Positions 351 through 19,693 are shown, counted from the stretch's first letter. The stretch is DNA of 32,000 bases from Sulfolobus acidocaldarius DSM 639 (GCF_000012285.1 NC_007181.1:1710001-1742000); one strand, 5' to 3'. Numbers and translations: made by a program. Notes: generated by a model not told the origin, from the sequence alone.

Positions 351-1343
351 TCACTTTCCTTTTCTCCTATAAATGATGTCTAAAGTGAACGCTACTGCAG
401 TTATGGCTATGGCTAAACCGAATATAAGCATAGGCTCTACAGGGTATTCAACTTTGATACCTACACTTCCTTGAGGAGGAGACTCTCCGTATACGTTTAT
501 CACTTTAAAGGTCTTCAGTTTAGGGAAAGTTATGTTTACTGTCATGGACGTGGAATTTACAGTTAAAGTAAATTTACCGTTACCATAATTATCTGTGTAA
601 CCACTATAATATTGATGATTGTTAACGAAAACTACGTATGGCTCATCTGAGAACGGTGCTATCACAGAGAACTCTAAAGGTCTAACGGTGGCGTTATCTA
701 ACCTAAAACCAACATACGTTATATTCCACGGAAAATTGGTCTTAATGCCTACATAATATTCACTACCATTTATAAATACTCTAGATAATTCTGCCTTCCC
801 GTTATCATCAGTCAACACAACTGTATAATTAACAGGCTTATTGATTATCAAAGTATCCCCTATATAGTTTCCTGACGGACCAGGTATAGGTCCTATGAGG
901 TCCCAACTATTATTCATGTTCTGCCATAGGTATCCGTTCAGAGCGACTGTAAGTATTGACGTGTTAGACTTATAGTCAGGTAGTGGCGGAGTAAAGTTTT
1001 GCCCATAAAAAACTATACCTGATATCCTTGAAAGATTACAAATACCCACGAATGAGACTATCATCTCATTTGATATCGAGAAGTTAACAGGGAATAGAAT
1101 ATAGTTAGCCACAAAACCTTGGTAAGTTAATAGGTTACCATTCTTTATTAACTTGACACCTGTAGAGATGTTAGGGAAATTTATTGAGTTTATCTTGGTC
1201 TCTAAGACAGAGAACTTAATTTCTATATTCTGACCCAAATATACACTATTAGGATAACTAAGTTGCACCATAAGAGAATTGGTGTAGGTTGGAATTAACA
1301 TCAAGAGAAGGAAAAGCATCAACAGAATTATCACAGATCTCAT
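351..1343 (-). CDS. Secreted, membrane-anchored hypothetical surface protein rich in N-glycosylation sequons
   Basis: 330-aa ORF. It has a hydrophobic N-terminal signal/anchor (MRSVIILLMLFLLLMLIP) and a C-terminal TM helix followed by a basic tail (LIFGLAIAITAVAFTLDIIYRRKGK). About a dozen N-x-S/T sequons are present (NIS, NFS, NLS, NFT, NTS, NNS, NYT, NGS, NIT, NAT, NST, NIT). A TATA-like box lies upstream. Confidence 0.6.
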   Translation of the reverse strand: MRSVIILLMLFLLLMLIPTYTNSLMVQLSYPNSVYLGQNIEIKFSVLETKINSINFPNISTGVKLIKNGNLLTYQGFVANYILFPVNFSISNEMIVSFVGICNLSRISGIVFYGQNFTPPLPDYKSNTSILTVALNGYLWQNMNNSWDLIGPIPGPSGNYIGDTLIINKPVNYTVVLTDDNGKAELSRVFINGSEYYVGIKTNFPWNITYVGFRLDNATVRPLEFSVIAPFSDEPYVVFVNNHQYYSGYTDNYGNGKFTLTVNSTSMTVNITFPKLKTFKVINVYGESPPQGSVGIKVEYPVEPMLIFGLAIAITAVAFTLDIIYRRKGK

Positions 1344-2335: not shown

Positions 2336-4666
2336 CTATTTACTTTCACGCAACCTTTCACTAATTAATAGAGATGACAAAATGAGTAACGGTAGGAATG
2401 ACACAAAAAATAGCACTTTTTTAACATTACTGTACTTGAACTCAATAGTTGCTGTGTAATTCCCAGATGGCATTAACCAGGCATTTCCAAATCCGTTAGC
2501 TACGTAGTGATTATTATTAATTTTACCGTTTACCGATAACTCCCACCAATGATTATATCCTGTTGTAAAGACAAGATAAAAGCTCGTGTCACTGTTTACT
2601 TTAACTACTATTTTATCGGGACTTTCAATTTGATACTCTAAATGCACATTACTCACGTTTGAGATATTTAGCTTAGGTCCTCCGTCAATAAATGAGACAT
2701 TAAAAGCCTTGAACTTTCCAGTAGAGAAATTCCAAAAGATTTCATCATAACTCAAATTACCTGTTACTCCACTGCTCGCATAAACTAAGGGTACGTTGCC
2801 TTCAACTTCATAAATCTTATACGGGCCATAACTTCCAACGTATTTCAACCCTTTTGAGGAGTTCAACATAATCTCAAAAGCTGTGAAATTCCATGGATAA
2901 GCCCCTGAAAAATTATAGTATGGTCTAGCGAATGTACCCGGACCTGGATATGCTCCTTTATTTAACACTACATATTTAACACCAAGTACCTTAAGTAAAT
3001 TTACTAGGTCTGTTATGTTGTTTGAAGGTAAATATTTAGCCAATACGAAGACAATGGGTGATTTGCCAGCATCCGAGATCACCTGGCCCATGAAGAAGTA
3101 GGTTTGGGGAGGTGTGTTTGATCCAACCCAGCTTCCATTGTAATATGTGGCTGTTGAGAGTGCTAACTGTATAGGTAAGAACAGTACGTTATTATAGCCA
3201 GCTTTCGACAACACCTCAGAAGATGCAACAAACCACTGAGGATAGTTAAAGGTATTCAGGATCTTCTCGTCTGTATTACCTAACAAAAGGCTGTAATAAC
3301 TAGTAGATGAATGAGTTATTCCTACATATGAAAATATTATAGAATTAATGAGCAAAAATAAATAGAGGAGAGCATTAACTATTCTTCTAGCGGGGAAGGG
3401 ATGTCTTCTTATGAAGTCATAACTTAGTATGAGGAGAATTAGGAGACTCAAGTTTATCATATAACCTACATGCACCGGTTGCACCATGTACGAAAAGCCT
3501 GTAATTAATATACCAAGAATAGGTAACTTGATTATATTCGATTCAATGAGTGGGACTAGACTTATCACGCCACTTTGGAGGAGGAAGAGTAATATCAGAG
3601 TTAAAGTTAAGGACAATCTTAGAGGGAAATACATCTTTGGCTGAGCTCTGAAGATGACACTGAATATTAATGGTACAACAACAGTTACACCGAGTCCAAT
3701 AGCTCCAACTAAGTAATTAAGGAGAGATGGAGTTACAGATATTGCAGGATAATAAAGCAGAAAAGATGTAGAAAGGTTATAGTTTTTATAGGTGTCCAAT
3801 AATTGATATACTACAACGTTTTGACCTGAAAACGTCTGGAGAGAGGAAGAATATGCTCCCGTGCTTGAGAAATAGAGATAAAAGATTAGGTAGGAGCCAG
3901 AAATTAAGAGAATAGTGAAGAAAAGTAAGAACCTAAATAAGACTTTTCTAACGGATAATTGGAATATCTTGATCAAGGGAACTGTTACCACTATCATAAA
4001 TAAAATAAAGTAAGCTGTCATTGTCTGAAACTCATATATCATGCCTCCTAGACCTATTAATGATACAAGTACAAGAAGATTTAATGATTGTTTAATTGAG
4101 TTGACTGTTATCAGTCTGAGATAAGAGTAGATTAGTAAAGGAGTAGTAAAGTAACCATATAGAGGTGGAACAATTTCCCCCATTATCCAATTTATACCAA
4201 TAGTGTAGTAGTCCAGAATGAAGAAGTAGGTGACAAAAATAACAAAGAGATAGTCCAATAGGTCAAGTTCTTGTCTCCTGAAGAACTTGAATGTATAGAG
4301 GATTCCTACATAAGCAACGTTTGCCATTAACTGCACAACTATCCACTGCACTAAACCTATTCCTAGACCTAGTATGTAAAATGGAACGCTTAATACAGCG
4401 AGAGGAAAGTAAGTAACAAATCCGAACTCAGGACCTCCCGGAAAGACTCCGTAGTTCCAAATATTCACGTATCTCTCCAGGAAGTTTAACGGGTTTAGGG
4501 GAAAACCCCCGTCCCAGTAATATATAACATCTCCCCTTGTGTATAACCACCAAAATACGGAAAATATCACGTTAAAAGCTATTAAAGACATGATGGGGAG
4601 TAATCTCGCTTTCTGAGAGAACACAATAGTCGTATGCTTTTTCATTATAAAAAATATGATGAACAC
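2336..4666 (-). CDS. Large polytopic membrane protein, GT-C-fold glycosyltransferase-like (pair A, paralogue of 8771-11044)
   Basis: 776-aa ORF. By eye the N-terminal ~480 aa holds more than 10 hydrophobic helices, with first-loop motif YWDGGFPLNP...WNYGVFPG. A sequon-rich soluble region follows (GVKYVVLNKGAYPGPG, YPWNFTAFE). It ends in GYNHWWELSVNGK..NHYVANGFGNAWLMPSGNYTATIEF plus a final TM helix. That C-terminal signature resembles YfhO/AftD-type GT-C proteins. The exact start (4666 or 4645) is uncertain. Confidence 0.65.
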   Translation of the reverse strand: MFIIFFIMKKHTTIVFSQKARLLPIMSLIAFNVIFSVFWWLYTRGDVIYYWDGGFPLNPLNFLERYVNIWNYGVFPGGPEFGFVTYFPLAVLSVPFYILGLGIGLVQWIVVQLMANVAYVGILYTFKFFRRQELDLLDYLFVIFVTYFFILDYYTIGINWIMGEIVPPLYGYFTTPLLIYSYLRLITVNSIKQSLNLLVLVSLIGLGGMIYEFQTMTAYFILFMIVVTVPLIKIFQLSVRKVLFRFLLFFTILLISGSYLIFYLYFSSTGAYSSSLQTFSGQNVVVYQLLDTYKNYNLSTSFLLYYPAISVTPSLLNYLVGAIGLGVTVVVPLIFSVIFRAQPKMYFPLRLSLTLTLILLFLLQSGVISLVPLIESNIIKLPILGILITGFSYMVQPVHVGYMINLSLLILLILSYDFIRRHPFPARRIVNALLYLFLLINSIIFSYVGITHSSTSYYSLLLGNTDEKILNTFNYPQWFVASSEVLSKAGYNNVLFLPIQLALSTATYYNGSWVGSNTPPQTYFFMGQVISDAGKSPIVFVLAKYLPSNNITDLVNLLKVLGVKYVVLNKGAYPGPGTFARPYYNFSGAYPWNFTAFEIMLNSSKGLKYVGSYGPYKIYEVEGNVPLVYASSGVTGNLSYDEIFWNFSTGKFKAFNVSFIDGGPKLNISNVSNVHLEYQIESPDKIVVKVNSDTSFYLVFTTGYNHWWELSVNGKINNNHYVANGFGNAWLMPSGNYTATIEFKYSNVKKVLFFVSFLPLLILSSLLISERLRESK

Positions 4667-4740
4667 TTCAATTTAACTTTACAAGGTGATAAATTAAAGA
4701 TGCTTACGCTATCTATGTCTACAACATCCTAAAACAATCC

Positions 4741-5088
4741 TTAAACTCCTTGCAGGTTTTGAAGTAAAAACTTTAAGAGTAAAGAGGAGAGATGGAAATC
4801 AATTTCTAAGAATTTTGAAACATTAGCCTCCCACACGAAATTCTTCCTTATCTTCACATTAATTATTATCTTGAACATCTTACTCGCCAAACTAACATGA
4901 TCATCTCTACAACATTTCTGAAAATCACTACTTAGCATGTTATAATATCTTCTCACGTGCTTACTGTCCAAGAGAAAATAATAACCCCACTTGCTAAAGT
5001 ACTTTACCTTTCTCACATACCTTACACTACTCATATATCTTGACATAGTCAAAAACCTTCCAATTGCTTTTAGGAACTTTTTTATCAT
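4741..5088 (-). CDS. Hypothetical basic protein (only weak, unverified sulfotransferase-like motifs)
   Basis: 115-aa ORF with no TM segment. Its ATG overlaps (ATGA) the stop of a 31-39 aa upstream ORF (5085-5204). YYFLLDSKHVRRYYNML and IRKNFVWEAN loosely recall sulfotransferase 3'-PB and RKG..GdW regions, but the spacing is compressed. Confidence 0.35.
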   Translation of the reverse strand: MIKKFLKAIGRFLTMSRYMSSVRYVRKVKYFSKWGYYFLLDSKHVRRYYNMLSSDFQKCCRDDHVSLASKMFKIIINVKIRKNFVWEANVSKFLEIDFHLSSLLLKFLLQNLQGV

Positions 5089-5285
5089 CTCACAAAATCT
5101 CTAAGATAGACTCCTAAGCTCACGCTCTTTTTACAAAGCTTAGTCTTCTTGAGAAGCTCGATTGTTGTATCCTTAAACATGTCAACGATCAATCCCTTTC
5201 CCACTAAGACCTTGATACTTAAGTATGAGTGTTAATATTTCTACATGGACTGGATAAGGTTAAGAATTAATTCACTAAAGAATAT

Positions 5286-6353
5286 ATGCATTATGTGGAG
5301 ATTAGTTTAATTACGACATACCTTAAGAAGTTTGACGGTCAAAGTAGGGCAACAATAAACTTTGCTAAAGGTTTGAGTAAGCATGGAGTAAAAGTAAAGA
5401 TTGTGTCTCTTGGGCTAGAGGATGGTATTAAAGAGGAGCTTAAAAACAATGACATAGAGGTAATTAGTCTAGATCAGCCTAGAAGCGTTTATTATGATAT
5501 ATCTCTACTCTTTGGTTCTCCAAGCCCATTTAAGAAAATTGCCAATTATGTAAACGACTCTATTAGCATAGTTACCAATGATGAGGCGGTACCGGTGGTA
5601 AATAGTATCAAAGGACGTATTATATACTGGAGTCAGGGAGCATTAATGAGCGTGTTCCTATGGAAGCCATTTTACGCAAAAAAGGGTACTCTAAAGAGAT
5701 TAGTTAGTCTTTTCTTAGTTAGAAACTCCCACAGGTTCTCAGACTTTGTATCGAAGTATCATATGTTATTGGCTAATAGTAATACAAGCGCTTTAGTTGT
5801 TTCCCTTTTCTACAACAGGGTCCCACAGGGAGTTGTATACCCACCCATAGATATTGATAGTTTTAAATATTCTTCTGAAAAAGAAAAGTTTGCATTAGTG
5901 ATTTTAAAGAGATCATACCCTACTCATATAGACTTGCTGAGAAAGATTGCCAATTCTGGGATAAAGTTGAAAGTGATTGGGTATAAAATCGACGGGGCAG
6001 AATATTTAGGGGACAGAGTAGATGAAGAGAGGTTAAGAGATTTGTACTCGTCTGCATTAGTTACATTATACCCTGTTGATTTTGAGTACTTCGGATATAT
6101 TCCAGTAGAGTCCATGGCGTCAGGAACTCCAGTTATTGCTTTTAAGTATTCAGGTGGTCCTTCGGAATCCATAATACATGATGAAACAGGATGGTTAGTC
6201 TCTAACGAAAAAGAGTTTTATGAGGTTACTTTAAAAGTTTATGAGAGAGGTTACGAAGAAGCCTTACCACAAAAATGTAGAAATAGAGCCGAATATTTTT
6301 CTCTATTGACGCAGTCTAAGAGACTTTTAAGTTATATACATCAATCAGAGTAA
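5286..6353 (+). CDS. GT4-family (GT-B) glycosyltransferase
   Basis: 355-aa ORF. The C-terminal block FEYFGYIPVESMASGTPVIAFKYSGGPSESIIHDETGWLV is the canonical GT4 E-x7-E nucleotide-sugar-binding motif. Confidence 0.8.
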   Translation: MHYVEISLITTYLKKFDGQSRATINFAKGLSKHGVKVKIVSLGLEDGIKEELKNNDIEVISLDQPRSVYYDISLLFGSPSPFKKIANYVNDSISIVTNDEAVPVVNSIKGRIIYWSQGALMSVFLWKPFYAKKGTLKRLVSLFLVRNSHRFSDFVSKYHMLLANSNTSALVVSLFYNRVPQGVVYPPIDIDSFKYSSEKEKFALVILKRSYPTHIDLLRKIANSGIKLKVIGYKIDGAEYLGDRVDEERLRDLYSSALVTLYPVDFEYFGYIPVESMASGTPVIAFKYSGGPSESIIHDETGWLVSNEKEFYEVTLKVYERGYEEALPQKCRNRAEYFSLLTQSKRLLSYIHQSE

Positions 6354-8770: not shown

Positions 8771-11044
8771 TTATTTTTCCCATCTTACATGACGAAGTCG
8801 AATCCTATCTTTCACTAGAATTATCAAAGCGATAACTACTGGACTCAGTAAGGAGATTATGAAAAAGTACGGAATAATGTTAGCCGGATAAAACTCTACA
8901 ATAGCAGTATATTCACCAGCTGGCATTAGCCAACTGTTAGCATAACCATTTGCCAGATAATGACTTTTCACCTCATGACTCTTAATTATGACTCTCCAAA
9001 AATTACTATAACCCTCATCTAGCACCAAGTAAAATGGCTTTGTAGCGTTGACCTTTACAACATACATCACGTTGTTGTAGTTATTTATAACTGTCATTTT
9101 AACGCCTGAAATGTTAGTTATGTTTACAGCACCATTACCGTAAATTAAGCTCTGCCTCTGAGCAGTCAATAGATTGTTGGAGTAGGTTAGGAAAATTTGG
9201 TTATAGTCCAGTGTATTTACAACTATACCCTCTGAGGCATAGATTAGGCTGACATTTAGGTTTATCCGATAAACGTTGTAGTAGTTGTTCTCCAAAGTTA
9301 ATGTCGCATTAGGTAAGTGAGAAAGGTAATACTCAAATTTACTGAAATTCCATGGGTATCCACCAGCTTGATATAATGGCACTCCTGGACCAGGATACTC
9401 ATTCTTGCTCAATACTATGTACTTTATACCAAGCAGGACTAGGAAATTTGTCACATTCTTAAAATTTCCAGGGAAGTACAAGTAAAGCGGGTTCGTAACC
9501 GTGTTGGGTATGGGAAGCTTCACAATTGTGCCCGTTATGAACTGAGAGAGAGGGTCAATATTGTGCAATGAAGCCATGGTAACGTTATCATGAATGTAAT
9601 ATATACCTGCAATATACTGTAAAGGTAATAATAATACATTATAGTTTTCTGCATTCTGGTGTAAATAGTAACCTACTTCTAAAAGCTCCTCTGGAGGATA
9701 GAACACATTAGTTGCTGCAACTGGTAAATAATCAAAGGTCTTTATTTGTTGATAAGAATCAGAGACAACAAAAGTGGACATGTAAACACTGACCAGTATT
9801 GACAGGAAAAGTAGCGATAGTATTTTCTTACGATTACTATTGAAAGTCCTCAAAAAGATAACTATTGCATACGAAACTAAAAAAGAGAGGAAAAATGCTA
9901 CGGGGAATCCAGAGAAAACAAATTGAACGCTAAACATCAATCCTACAGCAATGAAACCTATGGAAGATTGAGACAATGAAAATAATGGGACTAGGTTTAC
10001 GAAACCTACTGTTGCCCCTCCGATGATCAGAAGACTGAAAAAGGAAGGGTTGAATAACTTATTATCAGTCTTATTCTTCACAGACAAAATAGAGATTATA
10101 ACTAATACGACGAAGAGGAGTAAACCAATCCAAGTATACCGATTAGGAGCGAAGAGTGAAAAGAGTGACAGAGGTGTAAAACTGTTATACTGATCTTGTA
10201 ATTCAGCAATAGCCAGTGGCATCCCGTTAAACTGTCCATAAACACCGCTAGAGAAGGCATTTAAGGATGCAAAATAAACATTATATAACTCCTCCAATCC
10301 GGCTATAATTGCTAAACCATATAAAATGAGATTCTTTGTGAGGAATAACTTGAAGCTAATATTCTTTCTCCTCTCAGTGTATAAGGATATGAACATGATT
10401 AGGTAAATTACTAAGATCCAAAGGGTGTAGGAGGCAGTAACAAATTGATTACCACTTAACATGATGATATAAATAGGCAAAAGGGTCAACGTCAGGTAAT
10501 TTCTCTCCAAAAATACATACTTCATTGCGAAGTGGAGTAGGAGTGGGAATAGCATATAAAAGACAAAGAACGGATAATTAACCCCTAATATCGGTGGTCT
10601 ATATCCAAAGAACCCCCATGTATACATAAACCCTCCTAGAATCCCAGAGAGATAGATGTATGACTTATTCGTCTCTCTACCTAACAACGAGAGGAGAGTG
10701 TCAATCATCTTTACAAACCCAACTTTGGCTAAGAAAAAGAACAAGAGAAGGTATACCAGTTCTGATGTGGAGAAAGAGAGGTTAAGAACCTGAATTAAAA
10801 GGTAAAATATTAGTGCAGTGAAGAGGTTATGCTGTGAATAGGAGAAAGGAGCACCAGGAAAGAAATTATAATTCCAATAATCTACAAATATCTTATAAAG
10901 CCAGAGGGAAGGTATGAACGGAAAGCCTGAATCTATCCAGTAAATTATCCCACCTTTCAAGTAGTGTTCGAGAAGGAATAGGTCTAACAATAAGGTAGGT
11001 GGATAAAAGATAAGATCAAGCCGGCGAGCCCTGAGAAAGTCCAT
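8771..11044 (-). CDS. Large polytopic membrane protein, GT-C-fold glycosyltransferase-like (pair A, paralogue of 2336-4666)
   Basis: 757-aa ORF with the same architecture as 2336-4666. Shared motifs are YWIDSGFPFIP...WNYNFFPG, GIKYIVLSKNEYPGPG, GGYPWNFSKFE, GYSNFWRVIIKSHEVKSHYLANGYANSWLMPAGEYTAIVEF and a terminal TM helix. A TTTATATA box lies about 30 nt upstream of the ATG. Confidence 0.65.
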   Translation of the reverse strand: MDFLRARRLDLIFYPPTLLLDLFLLEHYLKGGIIYWIDSGFPFIPSLWLYKIFVDYWNYNFFPGAPFSYSQHNLFTALIFYLLIQVLNLSFSTSELVYLLLFFFLAKVGFVKMIDTLLSLLGRETNKSYIYLSGILGGFMYTWGFFGYRPPILGVNYPFFVFYMLFPLLLHFAMKYVFLERNYLTLTLLPIYIIMLSGNQFVTASYTLWILVIYLIMFISLYTERRKNISFKLFLTKNLILYGLAIIAGLEELYNVYFASLNAFSSGVYGQFNGMPLAIAELQDQYNSFTPLSLFSLFAPNRYTWIGLLLFVVLVIISILSVKNKTDNKLFNPSFFSLLIIGGATVGFVNLVPLFSLSQSSIGFIAVGLMFSVQFVFSGFPVAFFLSFLVSYAIVIFLRTFNSNRKKILSLLFLSILVSVYMSTFVVSDSYQQIKTFDYLPVAATNVFYPPEELLEVGYYLHQNAENYNVLLLPLQYIAGIYYIHDNVTMASLHNIDPLSQFITGTIVKLPIPNTVTNPLYLYFPGNFKNVTNFLVLLGIKYIVLSKNEYPGPGVPLYQAGGYPWNFSKFEYYLSHLPNATLTLENNYYNVYRINLNVSLIYASEGIVVNTLDYNQIFLTYSNNLLTAQRQSLIYGNGAVNITNISGVKMTVINNYNNVMYVVKVNATKPFYLVLDEGYSNFWRVIIKSHEVKSHYLANGYANSWLMPAGEYTAIVEFYPANIIPYFFIISLLSPVVIALIILVKDRIRLRHVRWEK

Positions 11045-11167: not shown

Positions 11168-11947
11168 ATGAAAAAATTTATAATTGAATCCAGGGGAGTA
11201 AAAGTTAGATTGTACAGTCCTACAATAAAGAGACTAATTGAACTCTTGAGACAATACAAGAAAACTTACAAGAACTGGTATAGCGTGATGATAGATATAT
11301 TCAGAAGTAAGGATAGGGTCAAATGTGCGTTTAAATATGGAGAAGTAATTGAACTGACTAGGCTAGAGGCTATTCTGTTGTCAGGGTTGGACGTAAAGAA
11401 GTTGACCGATGATGAGGTCACTTTTTCCTTTCTTGGTAAGAACCTGATCTTAAGGGGTTGGAAGGATGGGTTCCCAGGAGATGCATTTAACGACTATCGA
11501 AAGGCAGATGTAAGGGAAAAGAAGGTATTAGACATTGGGGCAGCGATAGGAGACTCACCAATATACTTCAGCCTAATGGGGGCGAAAAGTGTAGTAGCAG
11601 TTGAGCCTGATCCGAAAAAGGTCAAGTATATGAAAGTTAACCTGGAACTAAATGACATAAGAAACGTAATAGTAGTTGATAAGGCTCTATCAACAGTCGA
11701 TAATGAAAGAGAAGTAAGATTGAATACACTTCTAGAGAAGTTCGGACCTTTTGATATAGCCAAGATTGACTGTGAAGGGTGTGAAAGGAGAGTTATCTCG
11801 GACATAAAAGGTATACCTGAAATAATTATTGAATGGGATTTTGAATATAGAAGTTTAGCCGAGAAGTTAAGGGAGGAAGGTTATGAGGTAAAGGTTGAAA
11901 AGCATGCTAGAGACCTTGGAATGATTTATGCTAGGTTTAAAAGGTAA
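11168..11947 (+). CDS. FkbM-family SAM-dependent methyltransferase
   Basis: 259-aa ORF. VLDIGAAIGDSPIYFSLMGAKSVVAVEPDP is the SAM-binding motif I plus the acidic strand-2 end. DIAKIDCEGCERRV is the FkbM-type K-h-D-h-E-G-x-E motif. Confidence 0.8.
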   Translation: MKKFIIESRGVKVRLYSPTIKRLIELLRQYKKTYKNWYSVMIDIFRSKDRVKCAFKYGEVIELTRLEAILLSGLDVKKLTDDEVTFSFLGKNLILRGWKDGFPGDAFNDYRKADVREKKVLDIGAAIGDSPIYFSLMGAKSVVAVEPDPKKVKYMKVNLELNDIRNVIVVDKALSTVDNEREVRLNTLLEKFGPFDIAKIDCEGCERRVISDIKGIPEIIIEWDFEYRSLAEKLREEGYEVKVEKHARDLGMIYARFKR

Positions 11948-12457: not shown

Positions 12458-12466
12458 TTTTATAAG
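12458..12466 (+). promoter_or_regulatory. TATA box supporting the GTG start at 12488
   Basis: TTTTATAAG is centred 26 nt upstream of GTG 12488. No in-frame ATG precedes the first TM helix. Confidence 0.4.
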
Positions 12467-12487: not shown

Positions 12488-14938
12488 GTGCGTAGGCTAA
12501 AGTTATCAAGAGATAAATTAAGCTTCAAAACACTGATAAACAACTATCACCTGATAATTCTGGCACTTTCTTTCGTATTATTTAACATTATTATAAACTT
12601 CTTGTTTTTCGTAGTGCTTTATAATCTCAACTATTCGTCCTACAATTTGAGCATGTTCATACAAGAGTTGTATTCCGCATCTCAAGGAAAGCCCTTCTAT
12701 GATACTATAAATTTACTTTTTAGGGGAATTCCATATGGGTTAGCCATACATCCTTACCTCATACTATATATTTTAGTACCCCTGTACAAGGCATTTCCGT
12801 CTTGGTTGACCCTATCGTTAGTGGAATCTCTTGTACTAACATTGGCTTCCCTCTACCTTTATAAGATAGCTCGAGAGGTATTACCTCAGAGTAAGTTACT
12901 TCCAGTTATATCATCTATGATCTTCTTATTTAATCCTTTAACAGTTGCATCTTTTCTCTCTGGCTTCCAGGTTTTATCATTCATACCCCTCTTTTATCTA
13001 GCGTCCTACTATTACTACCTTACTAAAAGATGGAAGCTATTCATAATATCAACAGCATTGTTATTACTCACATCGGAGGCATCATACCCAATTGTATTGA
13101 CTTATATGGTTCTTTTGATTATAAAGAACAAAAATAATAACAAGTTACTTAGCAAGTCGTTCTTTAGGAGAAATATACTTTTCTTATCTGTGATTGTAGC
13201 TACTATAGTCATTGCATTAACACTTCCAACTTTTCTGCAAACTAAGTATACTGGTACATCACATAGTATCTTACAAGACATTGAACAATATTACTCGTTA
13301 AATTACGTTAATTATGATATACTTAATAAACTGGAATACTGGCTACTTGTATTTGGATCATTTGGTGCATTATCACTTTTCTCTCCTCTAGAATTATTAC
13401 CAGCATTACCCTACATTTTACTTACTGTTATGTCATTTTATCCAAATTATTACACACCAGGGTATTACTACTTCTTCCTAGTACTACCTATGTTAGCTGT
13501 TGCTTTAGTTTACACCTTGAAAAAAATACATGATATAAAAAGGGTAGTAAGAGTAGCATTAGTGTTTGTCCTTCTTATTGGTGTTTTCTTCAATCCCTAC
13601 ATCTATACTACTTTTCAATCCTATAACTCCCCAAAAATAGTCTCGCCCGGCTATCCTCCATCCTTTAATACTACATTAGCTAGTGTTAACCAAATGTACA
13701 TTAATGAGCTTACTTCACTTATTCCACCAAACTCCAGTATAGTAGCAACTACTGATCTCTTACCGTTTGTCTCAAATAGTATGAATGCATATGTTCTTCC
13801 ACCATACTCTAACGTAAATTTAAATATATTGAAAAATTTAAACGTATTGAAACGATTAGCACCTACACCTAATTACTTATTAATTGACGGGTCATTTTTG
13901 ACCCCGTCTTTTAATTCAATTGAAGGAAATTATGGTATATATGCTGAGACCAATGGTATATCATTATATAAGTTGAACTACTCAGGAGAAGTGAAACTAT
14001 TTGCCCCGTTAATTCAGTTTATCCCTGCCTACGATTTTTACATTTGGTCTTATGTTCCACCCACACAAGTTAATGTGGTAAATGATAATCAATTCGGGAA
14101 AGTTTATATGTACGTTAAAAATGGTTATAAATCCGATGGAGCTACTCTGTGGTTTGGTCCTTACATTCATTTACCCCAAGGTACATATCTCGCTGAATTC
14201 TATCTTAAATTTGATAACGTCACTACTAACGGTAGTTTACTTAGGATAGACATTAATATAAATCCTTATGGGTCTCCAATTTACAAAATAATTAACTCGA
14301 GTGACATCGTTCAAGGAAAATGGATGAAATTCGATCTATTATTTACTATTCCTTATAATGAGCTATTATCGAGTGTGGAATTCAGAGGCTTCTCTATATC
14401 AAATCAATCCAACATTTATTTTGCAGGTGTCAAGTTAATTCAGATTAGTCCATATGTAAACTACATATATCCTGCCTGTGATTTCGCCACTATTAATGGT
14501 ATTAAGCAGACCCAAGGAAATTTCATACTAGGTGGTTGTGACATAGTATTAAATAGTAGTACAGCTATCTGGTATGGTCCTTATATAACCTTACCAGAAG
14601 GAAATTTCACTGCCTATTATATTTTCTCTATGGACTTAAATAAACGGAACTTTACCCCTAACACTACTATACTTACTTTAGATATATCCTATGACATAGG
14701 CAAATACATTTTAAACACTTTGAACATCAACGATAGTGAACTCATTAGATATAATGTTAATGGAGTTTATCTAGTCCCCTTGACGTTTTCGCTTAACCAA
14801 ACTACAAGTTATGTTGAATTTAGAGGATTTAATTTTAATGCCGAAGGAGAAGTATATTTCTACGGTGCAATAATAGTGCCAGACTATGATAATTATACCC
14901 CTAGTTTTTTAATAAATTATCTCAATTCTCTACAATAG
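12488..14938 (+). CDS. DUF2079-like polytopic membrane protein (GT-C-like) with duplicated C-terminal soluble module (pair B)
   Basis: 816-aa ORF. The N-terminal ~380 aa is multi-TM, with the DUF2079-type first-loop region (YNLSMFIQELYSASQGKPFYD). The C-terminal ~430 aa is soluble and sequon-rich. It contains two copies of a module marked by LWFGPYIHLPQGTYLAEFY...VEFRGFSISNQSNIYFAGV and IWYGPYITLPEGNFTAYYI...VEFRGFNFNAEGEVYFYGA, at about nt 14090-14460 and 14530-14890. Confidence 0.7.
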   Translation: MRRLKLSRDKLSFKTLINNYHLIILALSFVLFNIIINFLFFVVLYNLNYSSYNLSMFIQELYSASQGKPFYDTINLLFRGIPYGLAIHPYLILYILVPLYKAFPSWLTLSLVESLVLTLASLYLYKIAREVLPQSKLLPVISSMIFLFNPLTVASFLSGFQVLSFIPLFYLASYYYYLTKRWKLFIISTALLLLTSEASYPIVLTYMVLLIIKNKNNNKLLSKSFFRRNILFLSVIVATIVIALTLPTFLQTKYTGTSHSILQDIEQYYSLNYVNYDILNKLEYWLLVFGSFGALSLFSPLELLPALPYILLTVMSFYPNYYTPGYYYFFLVLPMLAVALVYTLKKIHDIKRVVRVALVFVLLIGVFFNPYIYTTFQSYNSPKIVSPGYPPSFNTTLASVNQMYINELTSLIPPNSSIVATTDLLPFVSNSMNAYVLPPYSNVNLNILKNLNVLKRLAPTPNYLLIDGSFLTPSFNSIEGNYGIYAETNGISLYKLNYSGEVKLFAPLIQFIPAYDFYIWSYVPPTQVNVVNDNQFGKVYMYVKNGYKSDGATLWFGPYIHLPQGTYLAEFYLKFDNVTTNGSLLRIDININPYGSPIYKIINSSDIVQGKWMKFDLLFTIPYNELLSSVEFRGFSISNQSNIYFAGVKLIQISPYVNYIYPACDFATINGIKQTQGNFILGGCDIVLNSSTAIWYGPYITLPEGNFTAYYIFSMDLNKRNFTPNTTILTLDISYDIGKYILNTLNINDSELIRYNVNGVYLVPLTFSLNQTTSYVEFRGFNFNAEGEVYFYGAIIVPDYDNYTPSFLINYLNSLQ

Positions 14939-15043
14939 TATATTTGACCTTTTTATTTAGACTATAAGGTCTAGACAGTAATATTGAATTATTATAGTAA
15001 ATTTTTGGTTTGGAGGAGAATTAAATGAGAAAAAATTCAGATT
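14939..15043. terminator. Shared terminator region of the convergent pair-B genes
   Basis: A T-tract (ctttttattt, from 14950) lies 12 nt after the plus-gene stop. A T6 run on the minus strand (15030-15035) lies about 9 nt after the minus-gene stop. A small inverted repeat tagac-tataag-gtcta sits between them. Oligo-T tracts are the usual archaeal termination signal. Confidence 0.35.
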
Positions 15044-17485
15044 TTACTTAAATTGAAAGTTATAAAGGAACAATTGATAATTATTTTCAAAATACTTTAA
15101 AGTATATGTATCATTTGAATAAGTTACTAATACTCCATAAAAGTATATATGAGCAGGCAGGTTAAAGTTGAATCCTCTAAACTCTATAAAACTCGTCGTT
15201 GAATTTAAAGTAATATTTACCTTTACTAGAAACAGATTATCATTAATTCTTAAGAGATCATTGGCAGTAATGCCCTTAGATACAATTATCTTACTAACCT
15301 TCTCAATAGGTATATCTATGTTCAATATTGTAGTGTTTTTATATAGACTAAGATCTGCGGTGTTATCTATGCCGATTATATAATACACAGTATAGTTGCC
15401 CTTAGGTAAGGTCACATAAGGACCGTACCATATAAATTCTGAAGTCTCATCACTGACTATATAAGGTGCTAAAAATGGGCTGTAAACTTTCTGACCGTGA
15501 TAAACATCAAACATGCTGGCAGGATAGAAATAGAAAGAGTAAGGACTTATCTCAGTTATGTTAACACCTCCGAAATATATAGTTATATTTGGATAGTAAG
15601 ATAAACCTCTAAACTCTAGTTGTTCAAAGTAGTCTTTTATCGTGAATATTATATTAAACACCATCCACTTCCCTTGAACAACATCATTTGAAGATATGAT
15701 ACTATAATTCAATGTACCTGAGGACGTACTTACAACCTCAACTCTCATAAGGTTTGTAATATAAAGTGGGACGTTTTCTAATTTGACGTAGAACTGAGCT
15801 ACGTAAGTACCTGTAGGTAGGTTGTAATAGGGACCATACCAGAGAGGTGTATTTAATGGATAAGTGCCATTTTTATATACGTAAACTGTGCCAATTTGAG
15901 GATCATTTACTTCAAAATAAGTCGGTGATCCTACATAGAAGTTTAATGCAGAGAAATACTTTGAAAACGGTTTAAAGTAGACTATGGGACCAGTGTAATT
16001 TGCCTTAAGTAAGAGTAGACCGTTTGCCTCTGCCAACATACTGTAATTTCCTCGGATGTAACTTAGAAACAATTCAGGTTCACTGAGGAAAATATAGTCT
16101 GGAAATCTTGGTGAATATTTTAATTGGCTAGATGTTATTAAACTACCATATAACGGGTAGGAATTAAGGTTATTTGCCACAAATGGAAATAAATTATTAC
16201 TAGCTAACACAACAGCATTTTCAGGTATTAATGAAGTCATATTAGATATGACCTCGTAATTTGAATTAGCTAAACTTAAATTGAAGGGTGGAACATACCC
16301 TCCACCGTAATATCTTGGGGAATTCATAGCTTGTAAGTTGTTATATGTAAAAGGATTTAGTAGAAATGAAATAAAGAGAACTATAACTAGAGCTACCTTA
16401 ATTACTCCTGGTCTTTTCAACAATGTATTTAATGAATGTAGTGAGGCTGTTGCCATCGGTCCTAATGCGATAAACACGTATTGGTAACCTATTCCTGAAT
16501 ACGTCAACATTATTGAAAATAAAGATGTGCCAATATATGGTAGAGCTGGCAGTAACTCTATGGGGGAGAACAACGGAAGGAAACCGAAGGAAGCGAAATA
16601 CATAAGCCAAAAACTCGACTTAAAGCTCCACGCATAATTTATTCCTTTTAGAAATAAATAAGTTATAGTAGAGTATAGATAATGGGTAGTAGAGGAATGA
16701 GAAGAGGTTGCGAAAATAGAGTTAAGATAATGAGGTATAGTTAGCCCCATTATTATTGATATAATAATAAAAATTAAAAATAATGTAGTATTTTTAAGAA
16801 AAAATTTAATTTTTGTTCCTTTTTTATAACTTTTTATTATCAAGTAAATCATAAATAGGATAACTATTGGGTACGCCGCTTCCATGGATAATAGTAAAAA
16901 GATAATGAATGTGGAAAACCTTCTCCAAGCTTTAATAAGGTAATAATAATATGCACCTAAATAAAATAAAGGAAAAAACACTTCTGCGTGGAAATCATAT
17001 AGGTAACCAGATATAGAAAGAGGATTAAATAAATACAGGATAGTAAATATTAGTGGTAATGTTCTAAATCCATTTTCCTTAAATAATGTAGAGCCTATCT
17101 TATATACATATATCGATGATAATGATATAATAAGAGATTGAGTTAATGAAAGCGTTAGCCAAGATGGGAAAAAATAGTATATCGGTAATAAGAAGAACAT
17201 TATGAAATATGGGTGGATACCCAATCCACTTATTACTCCATAATATGTAAAATTAGGCGAATCATAAAATATTCTTCCATGCAGAGTAGAATAAAGCTCC
17301 TGTAAGAAAATACCTAGGTCAAAAGCACCAGAGTAAAGATCATATAACCTTATATAAAACATCAAATTCACAAGAATGTTGAAAATGACATTCATAATAA
17401 TCAAGACAACATAGTCTCGTTTTAAGTATCGGGATAAGGAAAGTATTGTATTATAATTAACATAGAATGCATAACGTCTAGCCAT
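15044..17485 (-). CDS. DUF2079-like polytopic membrane protein (GT-C-like) with duplicated C-terminal soluble module (pair B)
   Basis: 813-aa ORF. It has the canonical first-loop motif GAFDLGIFLQELYSTLHGRIFYDS. It shares FPSWLTLSL, FSP(I/L)ELLPALPYI, S(S/N)D(I/V)VQGKWM and EFRGFNFN with 12488-14938. Its two C-terminal modules are marked by PLWYGPYYNLPTGTYVAQFY and FIWYGPYVTLPKGNYTVYYI. Confidence 0.7.
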   Translation of the reverse strand: MARRYAFYVNYNTILSLSRYLKRDYVVLIIMNVIFNILVNLMFYIRLYDLYSGAFDLGIFLQELYSTLHGRIFYDSPNFTYYGVISGLGIHPYFIMFFLLPIYYFFPSWLTLSLTQSLIISLSSIYVYKIGSTLFKENGFRTLPLIFTILYLFNPLSISGYLYDFHAEVFFPLFYLGAYYYYLIKAWRRFSTFIIFLLLSMEAAYPIVILFMIYLIIKSYKKGTKIKFFLKNTTLFLIFIIISIIMGLTIPHYLNSIFATSSHSSTTHYLYSTITYLFLKGINYAWSFKSSFWLMYFASFGFLPLFSPIELLPALPYIGTSLFSIMLTYSGIGYQYVFIALGPMATASLHSLNTLLKRPGVIKVALVIVLFISFLLNPFTYNNLQAMNSPRYYGGGYVPPFNLSLANSNYEVISNMTSLIPENAVVLASNNLFPFVANNLNSYPLYGSLITSSQLKYSPRFPDYIFLSEPELFLSYIRGNYSMLAEANGLLLLKANYTGPIVYFKPFSKYFSALNFYVGSPTYFEVNDPQIGTVYVYKNGTYPLNTPLWYGPYYNLPTGTYVAQFYVKLENVPLYITNLMRVEVVSTSSGTLNYSIISSNDVVQGKWMVFNIIFTIKDYFEQLEFRGLSYYPNITIYFGGVNITEISPYSFYFYPASMFDVYHGQKVYSPFLAPYIVSDETSEFIWYGPYVTLPKGNYTVYYIIGIDNTADLSLYKNTTILNIDIPIEKVSKIIVSKGITANDLLRINDNLFLVKVNITLNSTTSFIEFRGFNFNLPAHIYFYGVLVTYSNDTYTLKYFENNYQLFLYNFQFK

Positions 17486-17863
17486 GACAGATATAGTTAT
17501 AAGGTCAAGTTTATATTTTTAACTTAAACCATTTAATGTATTTTGTAGAGTACGTCTTTTTATTTATTTTAGCCCAATTATTATGTTAAATTTTTTAATA
17601 ATAAAATAAATAGATGAAATTATTTAATAATGATAAAAATCTGTTCTTTTATGTTAGTGTTTGCTGTTATCATAAAAATGACATGAAACGTACAGCTCAA
17701 AATTTTTCATGATCGATGTAAAAAATATTACCAACTAGGGAAACCCTAGAATTCGTATTTTACTTATAAAAAGAAATAAAATTCTGCTCATTCCTCTAAG
17801 TTTTTTAGGTAAAAGGTTTATAGCTAGTGAAACTTTTTCCTTTCTTTATAATTTTTAAAGATT

Positions 17864-17894
17864 TTATAATTATAAAAATAGTTATAATTATAAA
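17864..17894. repeat. AT-only direct repeat of TTATAATTATAAA (two copies, 18-bp period), built from tandem TTATAA palindromes
   Basis: ttataattataaa occurs at 17864-17876 and again at 17882-17894. A third partial copy (tttataatt) lies near 17845. All sit inside a long A/T block. Confidence 0.6.
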
Positions 17895-18079
17895 TTCCTT
17901 TGAAATTAAATAGATAAAAGAAATTAATATTAATACCAACCTTTAAGTTCATGGTTATAGAGTGGTAATATTCCTTGATTTACACTAAAATGTAGGTAAG
18001 TAAGCTTGTTGTTATAATATTTATGATTTGGGAATTGATGCACTAAATATCCTTAGAGTTTGGGAATAAGATACAAGGA

Positions 18080-18800
18080 CAGACTTACAGCCTTAACACT
18101 CGCAACAGCATCTATAATCAGCAAAATAGTCCGAGATAAAACCACTATATATCAAAGCTATTCATGGAAAAAGGATGTTGGTTGAGAAAAGTCATCTGAA
18201 GGTTATGAAAATAGCCATTCCAAAGTTACTTTCCGTGAACTTGCCTAGAACATTAAAGTATAAGATAATGGATGGCGACCAACAAATGGTTAGATAAAAT
18301 TAGAGGAACAAGAAGAAGAGGGGTATTATGAACAAGGGAAAAGTTAATTTAGTGTAAACCAGATTACTCATTTCGGCGTCCGTGGATAACTTTTAGACAA
18401 TCTCTCTTATAATCAAGTAATTATACATTATATATAATGTGTGAAAACTTCAGCTTAATTGAATTTACGCGATGATACTAAAAAATTCAGGCGTAATCAG
18501 GTTGACAAAGAACAAGAAGAATATAGGTTAAAAGTATATTCAAAACTAAGGTAGAGAGAAAATTCATTCCAGGACTTAATGGGTTCACAAGTTCGGTTAT
18601 TTGATATGGAGATAAATCTCTTTTAAAGAACTGTTAGTGTTTCATTGATTTTTGAGGAAATGGTTCATTTCCTATTTATGGGTACAGTGCAGTTATATGG
18701 GTAAAAATCGTAGCAAAACATTTCCTTGTAATTTAATTTATGTTATCATGAACGTGTTAATTGTCCAGCTAACATACTCTGTGTATCACCCTTCTGATGC
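18080..18800 (+). pseudogene. Decayed IS200/IS605-family tnpB (orfB)-like remnant
   Basis: Peptides in shifting frames appear in the order expected for TnpB. These are LTALTLATASIISKIVRDKTTIYQSY (N-terminal helix), MKIAIPKLLSVNLPRTLKYKI (the l.iPklg...l..pr. strand), CENFSLIEF (E-x-L RuvC-II-like), KTKVERKFIPGLNGFTSS (compare YKa..Gi.v..vNP.yTS) and C-SYMG-KNRSKTF-PC (degenerate Zn finger). Many stops and frameshifts interrupt them. No tnpA is visible. Confidence 0.35.
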
Positions 18801-19693
18801 AAAAAGGACCAACAAACTTTGCGTACATAATTACATGATGTGTATGGGCAATCATTTTGTTATTTTAATATAAAATTAATTTTTCTTCTGTTTATGATCT
18901 AAAATAGGTGTTTTCAGGGTGAGATTTAGAACTAGTTATGAGGTGAGGAAAGTAAACAGATTAGAACTGCTTTACCTCATTCAAATAATACCTATTCTTC
19001 TAATGTATATAGGTAAAAAGGTTTCAACGCTTTGGATTAAATCTCAGAGGCTTGCCTTTTACTTGATAGTCTAGTTGGGAGACTATATTGGCACACATAA
19101 CATTACTCTACTACCTCCATAAGTTTGCTAACTAATTATGGGCTTTATCTTGACATCAAGCGAGAGATTACTTACTTATTAACAAGATTAAGGTCTTGTT
19201 GGTGATTTAGGTATTATTATGTACGTGTTATTAGACACTGTGAGATTGGACTAATTACATTCTTTATGTCTAAGGAGTAGTTTTAATAGCTATGTAATGT
19301 TGAACGGTATTAAACTTATGGACTGGAGGAAGAAAAATGATCCCCGTATATGGCAAGGCACTAGCATACAACGCATTTAACTGGTTTGATACAAAACACT
19401 ATGTTAACATTTTTAATAAGAGGAGTTTACTGAGTTAGTGTTCAAGGAGTTTAATATATAGATTTCCAAATATTGATCATTGCTTTACATACAAGGAGGA
19501 TGATAGCTATACGACTAAAGGTATCTATCTCAGTGTATAACTCGATTTACTCAAGTGTTATTAGCATAACAAATATAAAATTGAATTTTATATATGTGAA
19601 TGAAATTTTTGTTCATACTATATAAATAATTAATGAGAATATATCAACGATTTTGTGAGTGGTGACTCCTGATCCCTATTTTATCAGCTTACT

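Follow-up and report, generated by a model that had tools for sequence, protein, structure and literature searches.

Convergent DUF2079 paralogues with tandem CBM-like modules in an exopolysaccharide gene cluster of Sulfolobus acidocaldarius: a predicted GT-C glycosyltransferase and its probable pseudo-enzyme partner

Within a 32,000-nucleotide stretch of the genome of Sulfolobus acidocaldarius DSM 639 (NC_007181.1:1710001-1742000; the whole of this stretch is called the window below, and positions are counted from its first letter), two large membrane-protein genes, here named A (12488-14938, + strand; 816 residues, GTG start) and B (15044-17485, - strand; 813 residues, ATG start), face each other tail to tail across an intergenic spacer of 105 bp (14939-15043). 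We read their products, with a probability of roughly 0.6, as paralogous extracytoplasmic glycosyltransferases (GTs) of the GT-C_A type in an exopolysaccharide (EPS) cluster, with enzymatic activity in B and with A as a pseudo-enzyme partner that binds glycan. What appears to be new here, judging from sequences and structural models, is an archaeal DUF2079 protein of GT-C type that carries carbohydrate-binding module (CBM)-like domains lying outside Pfam, with an apparently dead paralogue placed tail to tail with a predicted active one.

The open reading frames (ORFs) and their arrangement were as described by an earlier reading of the same DNA made without database searches (the sequence-only reading), and the S. 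acidocaldarius database proteins AAY81222.1 (Q4J7K9) and AAY81223.1 (Q4J7K8) were 100% identical to A and B, respectively. The two proteins shared 41% identity over 800 residues (BLASTP, E = 8e-180), and all four of the conserved blocks quoted in that reading were present in both, as FPSWLTLSL, LFSP(L/I)ELLPALPYI, S(S/N)D(I/V)VQGKWM and EFRGFNFN.

The N-terminal parts of both proteins matched the Pfam family DUF2079 (PF09852) far above its gathering threshold of 28.2 bits, as had been anticipated from the sequence, with A scoring 427.2 bits (E = 1e-127; residues 44-493, profile positions 2-459 of 459) and B scoring 440.3 bits (E = 1e-131; residues 46-492, profile positions 1-459). An AlphaFold2 model of full-length A, built from a 49-sequence alignment, had a mean predicted local distance difference test score (pLDDT) of 88.1 and a predicted template modelling score (pTM) of 0.87, and it comprised a helical membrane domain of approximately 11-13 helices, the last of which ends at about residue 376, a small alpha/beta domain (approximately residues 380-500) that still falls within the Pfam DUF2079 span, and two all-beta domains at the C-terminal end. 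The DUF2079 match of A (12617-13966, + strand) would thus take in a GT-C membrane core and an extracellular alpha/beta domain and, as the last membrane helix ends at about residue 376, about 440 residues (the alpha/beta domain and two modules) would lie outside the membrane, in agreement with the earlier estimate of about 430.

When the membrane part of the A model was compared with the PDB using Foldseek, it matched ArnT (5f15/5ezm; template modelling score, TM-score, of 0.46-0.48 on target) and ALG12 (9s6t; 0.47), and also ALG9, yeast STT3, AftD (6wbx, 6wby) and EmbB (6x0o), with E values of 3e-6 to 3e-4 and a probability of 1.00 throughout; in the same comparison, the C-terminal part of the full-length model matched CBMs. 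Both features that mark the GT-C_A fold were found, namely juxtamembrane (JM) helices between the first two transmembrane helices (TM1 and TM2) and similarity to solved GT-C enzymes. Searches of the PDB by sequence, using single proteins and profiles, returned nothing relevant, and one relative gave a weak match to PMT_2. The profile matches and the model support the assignment of the N-terminal domains of A and B to DUF2079 with a GT-C fold. N-X-S/T sequons were located mainly past residue 380 (14 of 16 in A and 13 of 15 in B) and the N-terminus was basic, which is consistent with an extracellular position of the modules in both proteins.

The two paralogues differ at the position expected to be catalytic. 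The most conserved residue of the membrane domain in the 49-sequence alignment was the Asp of an xDLGxxxQ motif situated just past TM1. In B this motif reads FDLG (17312-17323, - strand), in which D56 (17318-17320), at the JM1 tip, is predicted to be the catalytic Asp, and in A it is replaced by YNLS (12641-12652, + strand), with N53 (AAT, 12644-12646) in place of Asp and S55 (AGC) in place of Gly, each codon being one transition away from Asp or Gly. As the A model has helices at residues 20-45 (TM1) and 52-65, residue 53 would be placed at the JM1 tip. GT-C_A enzymes carry an essential catalytic Asp at this tip (PMC12041299, PMC12041525); the D62A variant of AftB is inactive (PMC12041299), and D58 of PimE occupies the same JM1-tip position (PMC12041525). 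The GT-C_A hallmark Asp is therefore found in B (D56) and is missing from A (N53).

Conservation at this site was high, with Asp in the JM1 column of 47 of 48 aligned sequences, A being the sole exception, and with the Gly of the motif in 46 of the 48. In a larger set (n = 89), the column held Asp in 84 sequences, Asn in A (counted twice, as A and as P0001), Ser in one relative, P0168, and gaps in two. The second conserved acid lies in an xxDFHx motif, which reads LYDFHA in B (16985-17002, - strand; D164 at 16994-16996) and LSGFQV in A (12956-12973, + strand; G159, at 12962-12964, for Asp and Q161 for His). P0168, like A, also lacks this second Asp, and the third S. acidocaldarius paralogue, P0002, retains both acids (D42 and D151). 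All database versions of A share one sequence and differ only in their start calls, so N53 and S55 are fixed and are not sequencing noise. Because Asn53/Ser55 replace the Asp-x-Gly and Gly159/Gln161 replace the Asp-Phe-His of the family, A is most likely catalytically inactive. The D-to-N and G-to-S changes together also make an N-X-S sequon (N53-L-S55) at the former active-site tip, which could be a coincidence or could carry a glycan 'plug'.

The losses in A were uneven across the protein. Eight of the 25 most conserved family positions were lost in A, compared to four each in B and P0002, and among those found in A only are the two DLG-motif and the two DFH-motif positions. In the membrane domain B and P0002 were 51% identical to each other and A was 39-41% identical to either, making A the most diverged of the three. 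The modules of A, in contrast, were equally or more outgroup-like than those of B (43/36/39% identity to outgroups versus 38/31/37% for module 1, and 36/33% versus 31/25% for module 2), and A is not simply decaying; its 816-codon frame is intact in a region of 32% GC, and its sequence was identical in 41 contigs. Within the membrane domain A still has H88, E197 and K281, which might, by analogy with K195 and H322 of PimE, bind the phosphate of a donor. At the level of sequence, this pattern of loss fits a pseudo-enzyme in which binding functions have been kept.

Both proteins end in two tandem copies of one module. Profile borders place the modules of A at residues 526-662 (14063-14473, + strand) and 663-804 (14474-14899, + strand), each a CBM-like beta-jelly roll by model and fold matches, with a short C-terminal helix (803-814) after the second, and the modules of B at residues 521-655 (15521-15925, - strand) and 656-795 (15101-15520, - strand). 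Pairwise, the internal duplication is weak (19% identity, E = 2e-4 in a two-sequence search). A hidden Markov model (HMM) built from the first modules of A, B and P0002 scored the second modules of A and B at 44.0 and 44.6 bits (E ~1e-12), with a maximum of 9.0 bits for 1000 composition-matched shuffles of the second modules, and the reciprocal test gave 49, 24 and 20 bits versus 9.1. The duplication proposed by the sequence-only reading was therefore upheld, and the size it had given (about 120-130 residues) is to be revised to a period of about 140 residues, with an HMM core of about 105-110.

A separate model of A residues 496-816 was a well-folded, all-beta jelly roll (pLDDT 89.7). The top single-domain matches of the module model were to CBM16 (TM-score 0.62-0.65, root-mean-square deviation 3.8-3.9 Å, approximately 17% identity), and the top two-domain match of the C-terminal model was to the tandem CBM22-1/CBM22-2 of a xylanase (E = 6e-7). 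The proposal that the module is a beta-sandwich or CBM-like unit was in this way borne out, the module being modelled neither as disordered nor in a fold foreign to glycan recognition. Among 58 relatives scanned, five matched Pfam CBM_4_9 (PF02018; threshold 25.9 bits) at E <= 0.01, with P0040 reaching 36 bits and P0011 25.4 bits. The A and B modules are a distinct family, distantly related to CBM_4_9 and not covered by Pfam, with the signature W(Y/F)GPYxxLPxGxY ... EFRG, and from their fold they are predicted to bind carbohydrate.

To place this architecture among other proteins, the C-terminal profile was searched with HMMER against 1.84 billion representative proteins, giving 272 matches at E <= 1e-3 and 64 at E <= 1e-10; this exhaustive profile search was much more informative than a word-indexed homologue search with full-length queries, which gave 4 and 12 matches and was dominated by hydrophobic words. 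In the set analysed locally (177 sequences, comprising 175 proteins with A and B), DUF2079 was joined to one module in 33 sequences, to two modules in 56, to three in 11, to four in one and to six in one (P0037, with six tandem modules in 1349 residues), and the remaining sequences were mostly fragments from short contigs. Named sources were mostly archaeal (Ignisphaera, Bathyarchaeia, Nitrososphaerota, Thermococci) and occasionally bacterial. With DUF2079 and one to six modules in more than 100 mostly archaeal proteins, the combination is a conserved family trait and no oddity of Sulfolobus. The few full-length proteins with the module and without DUF2079 are likewise carbohydrate-related or surface proteins, bearing DUF2298, GxGYxYP, DUF2961, Calx-beta or CARDB domains. 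Metagenomic examples include three modules on a DUF2298 polytopic membrane protein (P0130), two on a GxGYxYP putative glycoside hydrolase (P0122) and two on a DUF2961 protein (P0149), and this variety of scaffolds suggests a mobile, glycan-related module.

Paired DUF2079 genes were also found elsewhere, copy number and orientation in reference genomes being read through exact-protein look-ups only. S. acidocaldarius itself has a second convergent pair near the chromosome end (3024-5895 of locus L001, CP046615.1), with a gap of 67 bp. One member is P0002, of 644 residues with one module, which is B-like (49% identity to B and 35% to A), and the facing ORF of 289 residues is A-like (41% identity and 158 bits to A versus 33% and 100 bits to B) and lacks TM1, the DFH motif and all of the extracellular domains. 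As P0002 is B-like and its partner A-like, the convergent B-type/A-type pair was duplicated as a unit; by sequence, the DFH motif would have gone from the A-type lineage before this duplication, and the A-type gene would later have shrunk further in the second copy.

Two loci of Bathyarchaeia type (L008, 6636-17636, and L009, 6579-15436) each hold a DUF2079 gene with four to six modules, a GT2 gene and a convergent DUF2079 gene with three modules; orthologues between the two loci were 47% and 58% identical, and the members of one pair were 27% identical to each other. These clusters open with a GT87-like or unannotated membrane protein of approximately 745 residues, and their GT2 comes with or without a methyltransferase domain. 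The other relatives examined were single-copy, and a further candidate (L010) was rejected as a pair, being one gene split into two co-directional DUF2079 ORFs. Tail-to-tail DUF2079 pairs are thus recurrent and not universal, and a degenerate partner is so far confined to S. acidocaldarius.

The window corresponds to an uncharacterised GT/EPS cluster of S. acidocaldarius (saci_1904-1927), which is controlled by the biofilm regulator AbfR1 and for which a role in EPS synthesis has been proposed, without proof (PMC9549778, PMC5961385); expression of six of its soluble GTs has been reported (PMC11627041). Counting genes from these expressed GTs as anchors suggests that A and B may be Saci_1919 and Saci_1920, and no mention of either locus tag was found in the literature. 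The window contains five GT1/GT4 genes, two GT2 genes, a gene with a PAPS-reductase domain and, directly 5' of A, an FkbM-family methyltransferase gene (11168-11947, + strand; Pfam and NCBIfam matches). The adjacency of methyltransferase and DUF2079 genes recurs in a related metagenomic locus (L005/L006 synteny), and relatives of A and B adjoin a GT2-GtrA (GtrA_DPMS_TM) fusion and MatE/Polysacc_synt flippases. GT2-GtrA fusions are of the polyprenyl-phosphate sugar synthase type. Overall, the observation from which this work started was confirmed and its interpretation partly supported; the sequence-only reading had overlooked that A lacks the catalytic Asp, that the genome holds a second pair and that the setting is an EPS cluster.

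In the reading proposed here, each protein has an N-in membrane core of about 11-13 helices, a predicted extracellular alpha/beta cap and two tandem jelly-roll modules. If B is an enzyme and A a pseudo-enzyme, B would, from its fold, take a dolichyl-phosphate-linked sugar from the outer leaflet and, with Asp56 at the JM1 tip acting as the catalytic base, transfer the sugar to an extracellular glycan, which could be EPS or some other glycoconjugate of the cell surface, assembled by the cytoplasmic GT1/GT2 enzymes that are encoded nearby. Its tandem modules may keep a polymeric acceptor close to the active site in the way that the CBM at the C-terminal end of EmbC does, and A would have been kept as a glycan-binding, perhaps lipid-binding, partner, scaffold or regulator of B.

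The closest architectural parallel is with the mycobacterial and corynebacterial Emb arabinofuranosyltransferases (EmbA/B/C) and AftD, in which a polytopic GT-C core is likewise followed by extracytoplasmic lectin- or CBM-like beta-sandwich domains, and the Emb paralogues are encoded by adjacent genes and serve the same polymer. In EmbC the polysaccharide acceptor is bound by the CBM-like domains, on which chain extension depends, and mutation of a CBM tryptophan abolishes both binding and extension (PMC3044687). The sequence-only reading knew of no characterised protein built in this way; the mycobacterial EmbC, EmbB and AftD do combine GT-C and CBM-like parts (PMC3044687), and the statement holds only in that no member of the DUF2079 family has been studied. 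The likeness is one of fold and architecture, as no Pfam, NCBIfam or PDB sequence match to Emb or AftD was found in A or B. Unlike Emb and AftD, A and B belong to an archaeon, their donor would presumably be a dolichyl-phosphate sugar and not decaprenyl-phosphate arabinose, and they carry two tandem copies of one module type past an alpha/beta cap; unlike in Emb, the genes are convergent and not co-directional, and one of the proteins, A, lacks the catalytic Asp.

Other known systems resemble A and B in part. ArnT, PimE, AftB, ALG12 and ALG9 share with DUF2079 the JM helix past TM1 carrying an Asp, and ArnT and ALG12 were the best whole-domain matches, but identities are 7-15%, DUF2079 has its own motifs (xDLGxxxQ, DFH and K281), none of these enzymes has tandem CBM-like modules and A has Asn at the hallmark position. 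CBM families 4, 9, 16 and 22 share the jelly-roll fold and the tandem arrangement of the modules, but those of A and B sit on glycosyltransferases and not on glycoside hydrolases, have their own signature and are at present predicted binders. The GtrA/GtrB/GtrC type (the GT136 system of polyprenyl-phosphate-sugar synthase, flippase and GT-C) also deploys a GT-C beyond the cytoplasm, on a glycan that is complete or still growing (PMC11127046), and the GT2-GtrA fusion and flippases beside relatives of A and B fit this scheme, but in the window the GT2s have no membrane helices and there is no flippase, and the Gtr GT-Cs have no CBM tandems. A precedent for the role proposed for A is PIGU, the non-catalytic subunit of glycosylphosphatidylinositol (GPI) transamidase, in which a GT-C-like fold is kept for binding (PMC12041525); PIGU is a eukaryotic protein that belongs to another complex and has no sequence relationship to A, and A is a probable rather than an established inactive protein.

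Several points weigh against this reading. The catalytic role of the JM1 Asp was assigned from its position, conservation and secondary structure and not from a 3-D superposition, and the loss of the second Asp is weak evidence alone, because that column is only moderately conserved (Asp in 69 of 89 family members). Pairing does not generally imply an active/inactive couple, because the partner at L008, the sole one with a readable N-terminus, retains both acids, and P0168, the only other Asp-less member, has no paired partner on its 9-kb contig. No recognisable dolichyl-phosphate-sugar synthase or flippase was present in the window and its GT2s have no transmembrane helices, so donor supply would have to be encoded elsewhere. 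The jelly-roll fold of the modules also matched GH101, Vip3/Cry toxins, reelin repeats and meprin MAM domains, and because the MAM, reelin and Cry/Vip3 domains share it, a CBM-like fold alone does not prove sugar binding; neither A nor B matched any Pfam CBM family (E <= 1). Any physical interaction between A and B is hypothetical, and literature searches for DUF2079, PF09852 and the likely locus tags found no functional study.

An alternative is that A and B are both active GT-Cs of different specificity, adding sequential sugars or linkages to one glycan in the manner of EmbA and EmbB, with A working through a non-canonical residue or mechanism. The convergent pairs of two distinct DUF2079 types in other archaea, whose readable partner has the Asp, would be expected on such an account, as would the maintenance of A as an intact and invariant gene that retains H88, E197, K281 and most of the fold, and the position of the catalytic acid is known to differ among arabinosyltransferases (PMC12041299). 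We nevertheless consider it unlikely that A is active, as it is alone among the 48 aligned sequences, and one of two substituted members among the 89, in having no JM1 Asp, the second acid motif is gone too, and no acid that only A has, and that might compensate, was seen in the vicinity. The losses in A cluster in these motifs, its membrane domain has evolved more quickly than its counterparts in B and P0002, and the A-like remnant of 289 residues beside P0002 suggests that the A-type catalytic core is dispensable.

A similarly low probability is given to the modules being structural spacers or protein-protein domains, for example ones that, in the pseudo-periplasm, tether the enzyme to the S-layer or to further products of the cluster. 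Protein binding is a known function of the jelly roll (MAM domains, reelin repeats, Cry/Vip3 toxins), the modules of both proteins fall below every Pfam CBM threshold, their copy number varies from one to six as that of a spacer would, and their top conserved residues (GPY, EFRG) could belong to the structural core. The top single-domain fold matches, however, are true CBMs (CBM16, CBM22), several relatives pass or come near the Pfam CBM_4_9 threshold, the module was found almost only with carbohydrate-active scaffolds (DUF2079, DUF2298, GxGYxYP, DUF2961), and the acceptor-binding CBMs of the Emb/AftD GT-C enzymes provide a precedent (PMC3044687). The inverted orientation of A and B, and nothing else, would favour an invertible or phase-variable element, in which the paralogues recombine to flip the intervening DNA, as had been raised for this locus, or to swap module cassettes. 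This we regard as highly improbable. Long, near-identical DNA repeats flanking a segment were not found; the longest inverted match between A and B was 47 nt at 72% complementarity with exact seeds of approximately 10 nt, and it is explained by the conserved WYGPY motif. The 105-bp spacer carries no cargo with a promoter, the window ORFs that were scanned included no recombinase, and the sequences of A and B were each identical in every recorded contig, at least 41 in number (sequence was compared, not orientation).

The start of A bears on the JM1 tip. Public start calls disagree for both genes, with versions of 816, 774, 761, 730 and 705 residues for A and of 813, 783 and 772 residues for B. 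The 761-residue call of A begins at M56 (12653 rather than 12488) and removes TM1 and the JM1 tip, and the shorter calls of B begin within TM1 and retain D56. The 816-residue form of A is favoured because a TATA-like box (TTTTATAA; 12458-12465, + strand) lies approximately 23-30 bp 5' of its GTG start and because coding similarity to B extends upstream of M56. The position of the box is consistent with a leaderless A transcript, although this is a weak, consensus-type argument. Whichever start applies, GTG or M56, A is without the catalytic Asp. In the spacer, T-tracts lie 3' of both stop codons and no terminator-like hairpin was reported.

Elsewhere in the window, 2336-4666 (- strand) and 8771-11044 (- strand) encode paralogous membrane proteins of 776 and 757 residues (27% identity, E = 2e-54). 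Besides some 12 or more hydrophobic segments, each has a large part outside the cell and ends in a membrane anchor. They had no Pfam or NCBIfam match and were rejected as kin of DUF2079 (hhalign probability 1%); they may represent a further family of polymerases or GT-C-like proteins, as yet uncharacterised, within the EPS cluster. The 2.2 kb between the start of B and the next GT1 gene (17486-19693) contain no ORF of 75 residues or more, fall to 25% GC and include AT-rich palindromes at 17834-17923; an Rfam scan gave no match there or anywhere in the window, and the gap could represent either an extended regulatory or promoter region or the remains of degraded sequence. At 351-1343 (- strand) lies a gene for a protein of 330 residues with an N-terminal hydrophobic segment resembling a signal, a C-terminal membrane anchor, many N-X-S/T sequons and no Pfam match, which is probably a surface-anchored glycoprotein of the cluster.

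No archaeal exopolysaccharide pathway has been worked out (PMC5961385), and saci_1904-1927 is the leading EPS candidate in S. acidocaldarius, the main genetic model, from which EPS purifies as one fraction of 4-9 x 10^4 Da (PMC9549778). No direct support emerged for the processive or template-measuring enzyme suggested by the sequence-only reading. We would put forward, tentatively and with more doubt than confidence, that the dead paralogue A has been selected for its glycan-binding modules and lipid-phosphate-binding core and works with B to control how much EPS is made or how long its chains become (4-9 x 10^4 Da), for instance by forming a heterodimer in which the growing chain is presented or measured; that the module founds a new CBM family specific to archaeal GT-C enzymes; and that the B-type/A-type pair is a functional unit duplicated once in the genome.

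For the cluster, the analysis gives two of its largest unannotated genes a predicted role as extracellular, lipid-donor-dependent glycosyltransferases with acceptor-holding modules, and it singles out residues in each (D56 and D164 in B; N53, S55 and G159 in A). DUF2079, until now a 'predicted membrane protein', would become a GT-C_A family whose predicted catalytic motif is defined. To GT-C specialists the architecture will be unsurprising and the pairing with a pseudo-enzyme surprising; if confirmed, A would be a rare prokaryotic example of a non-catalytic protein with the GT-C fold.

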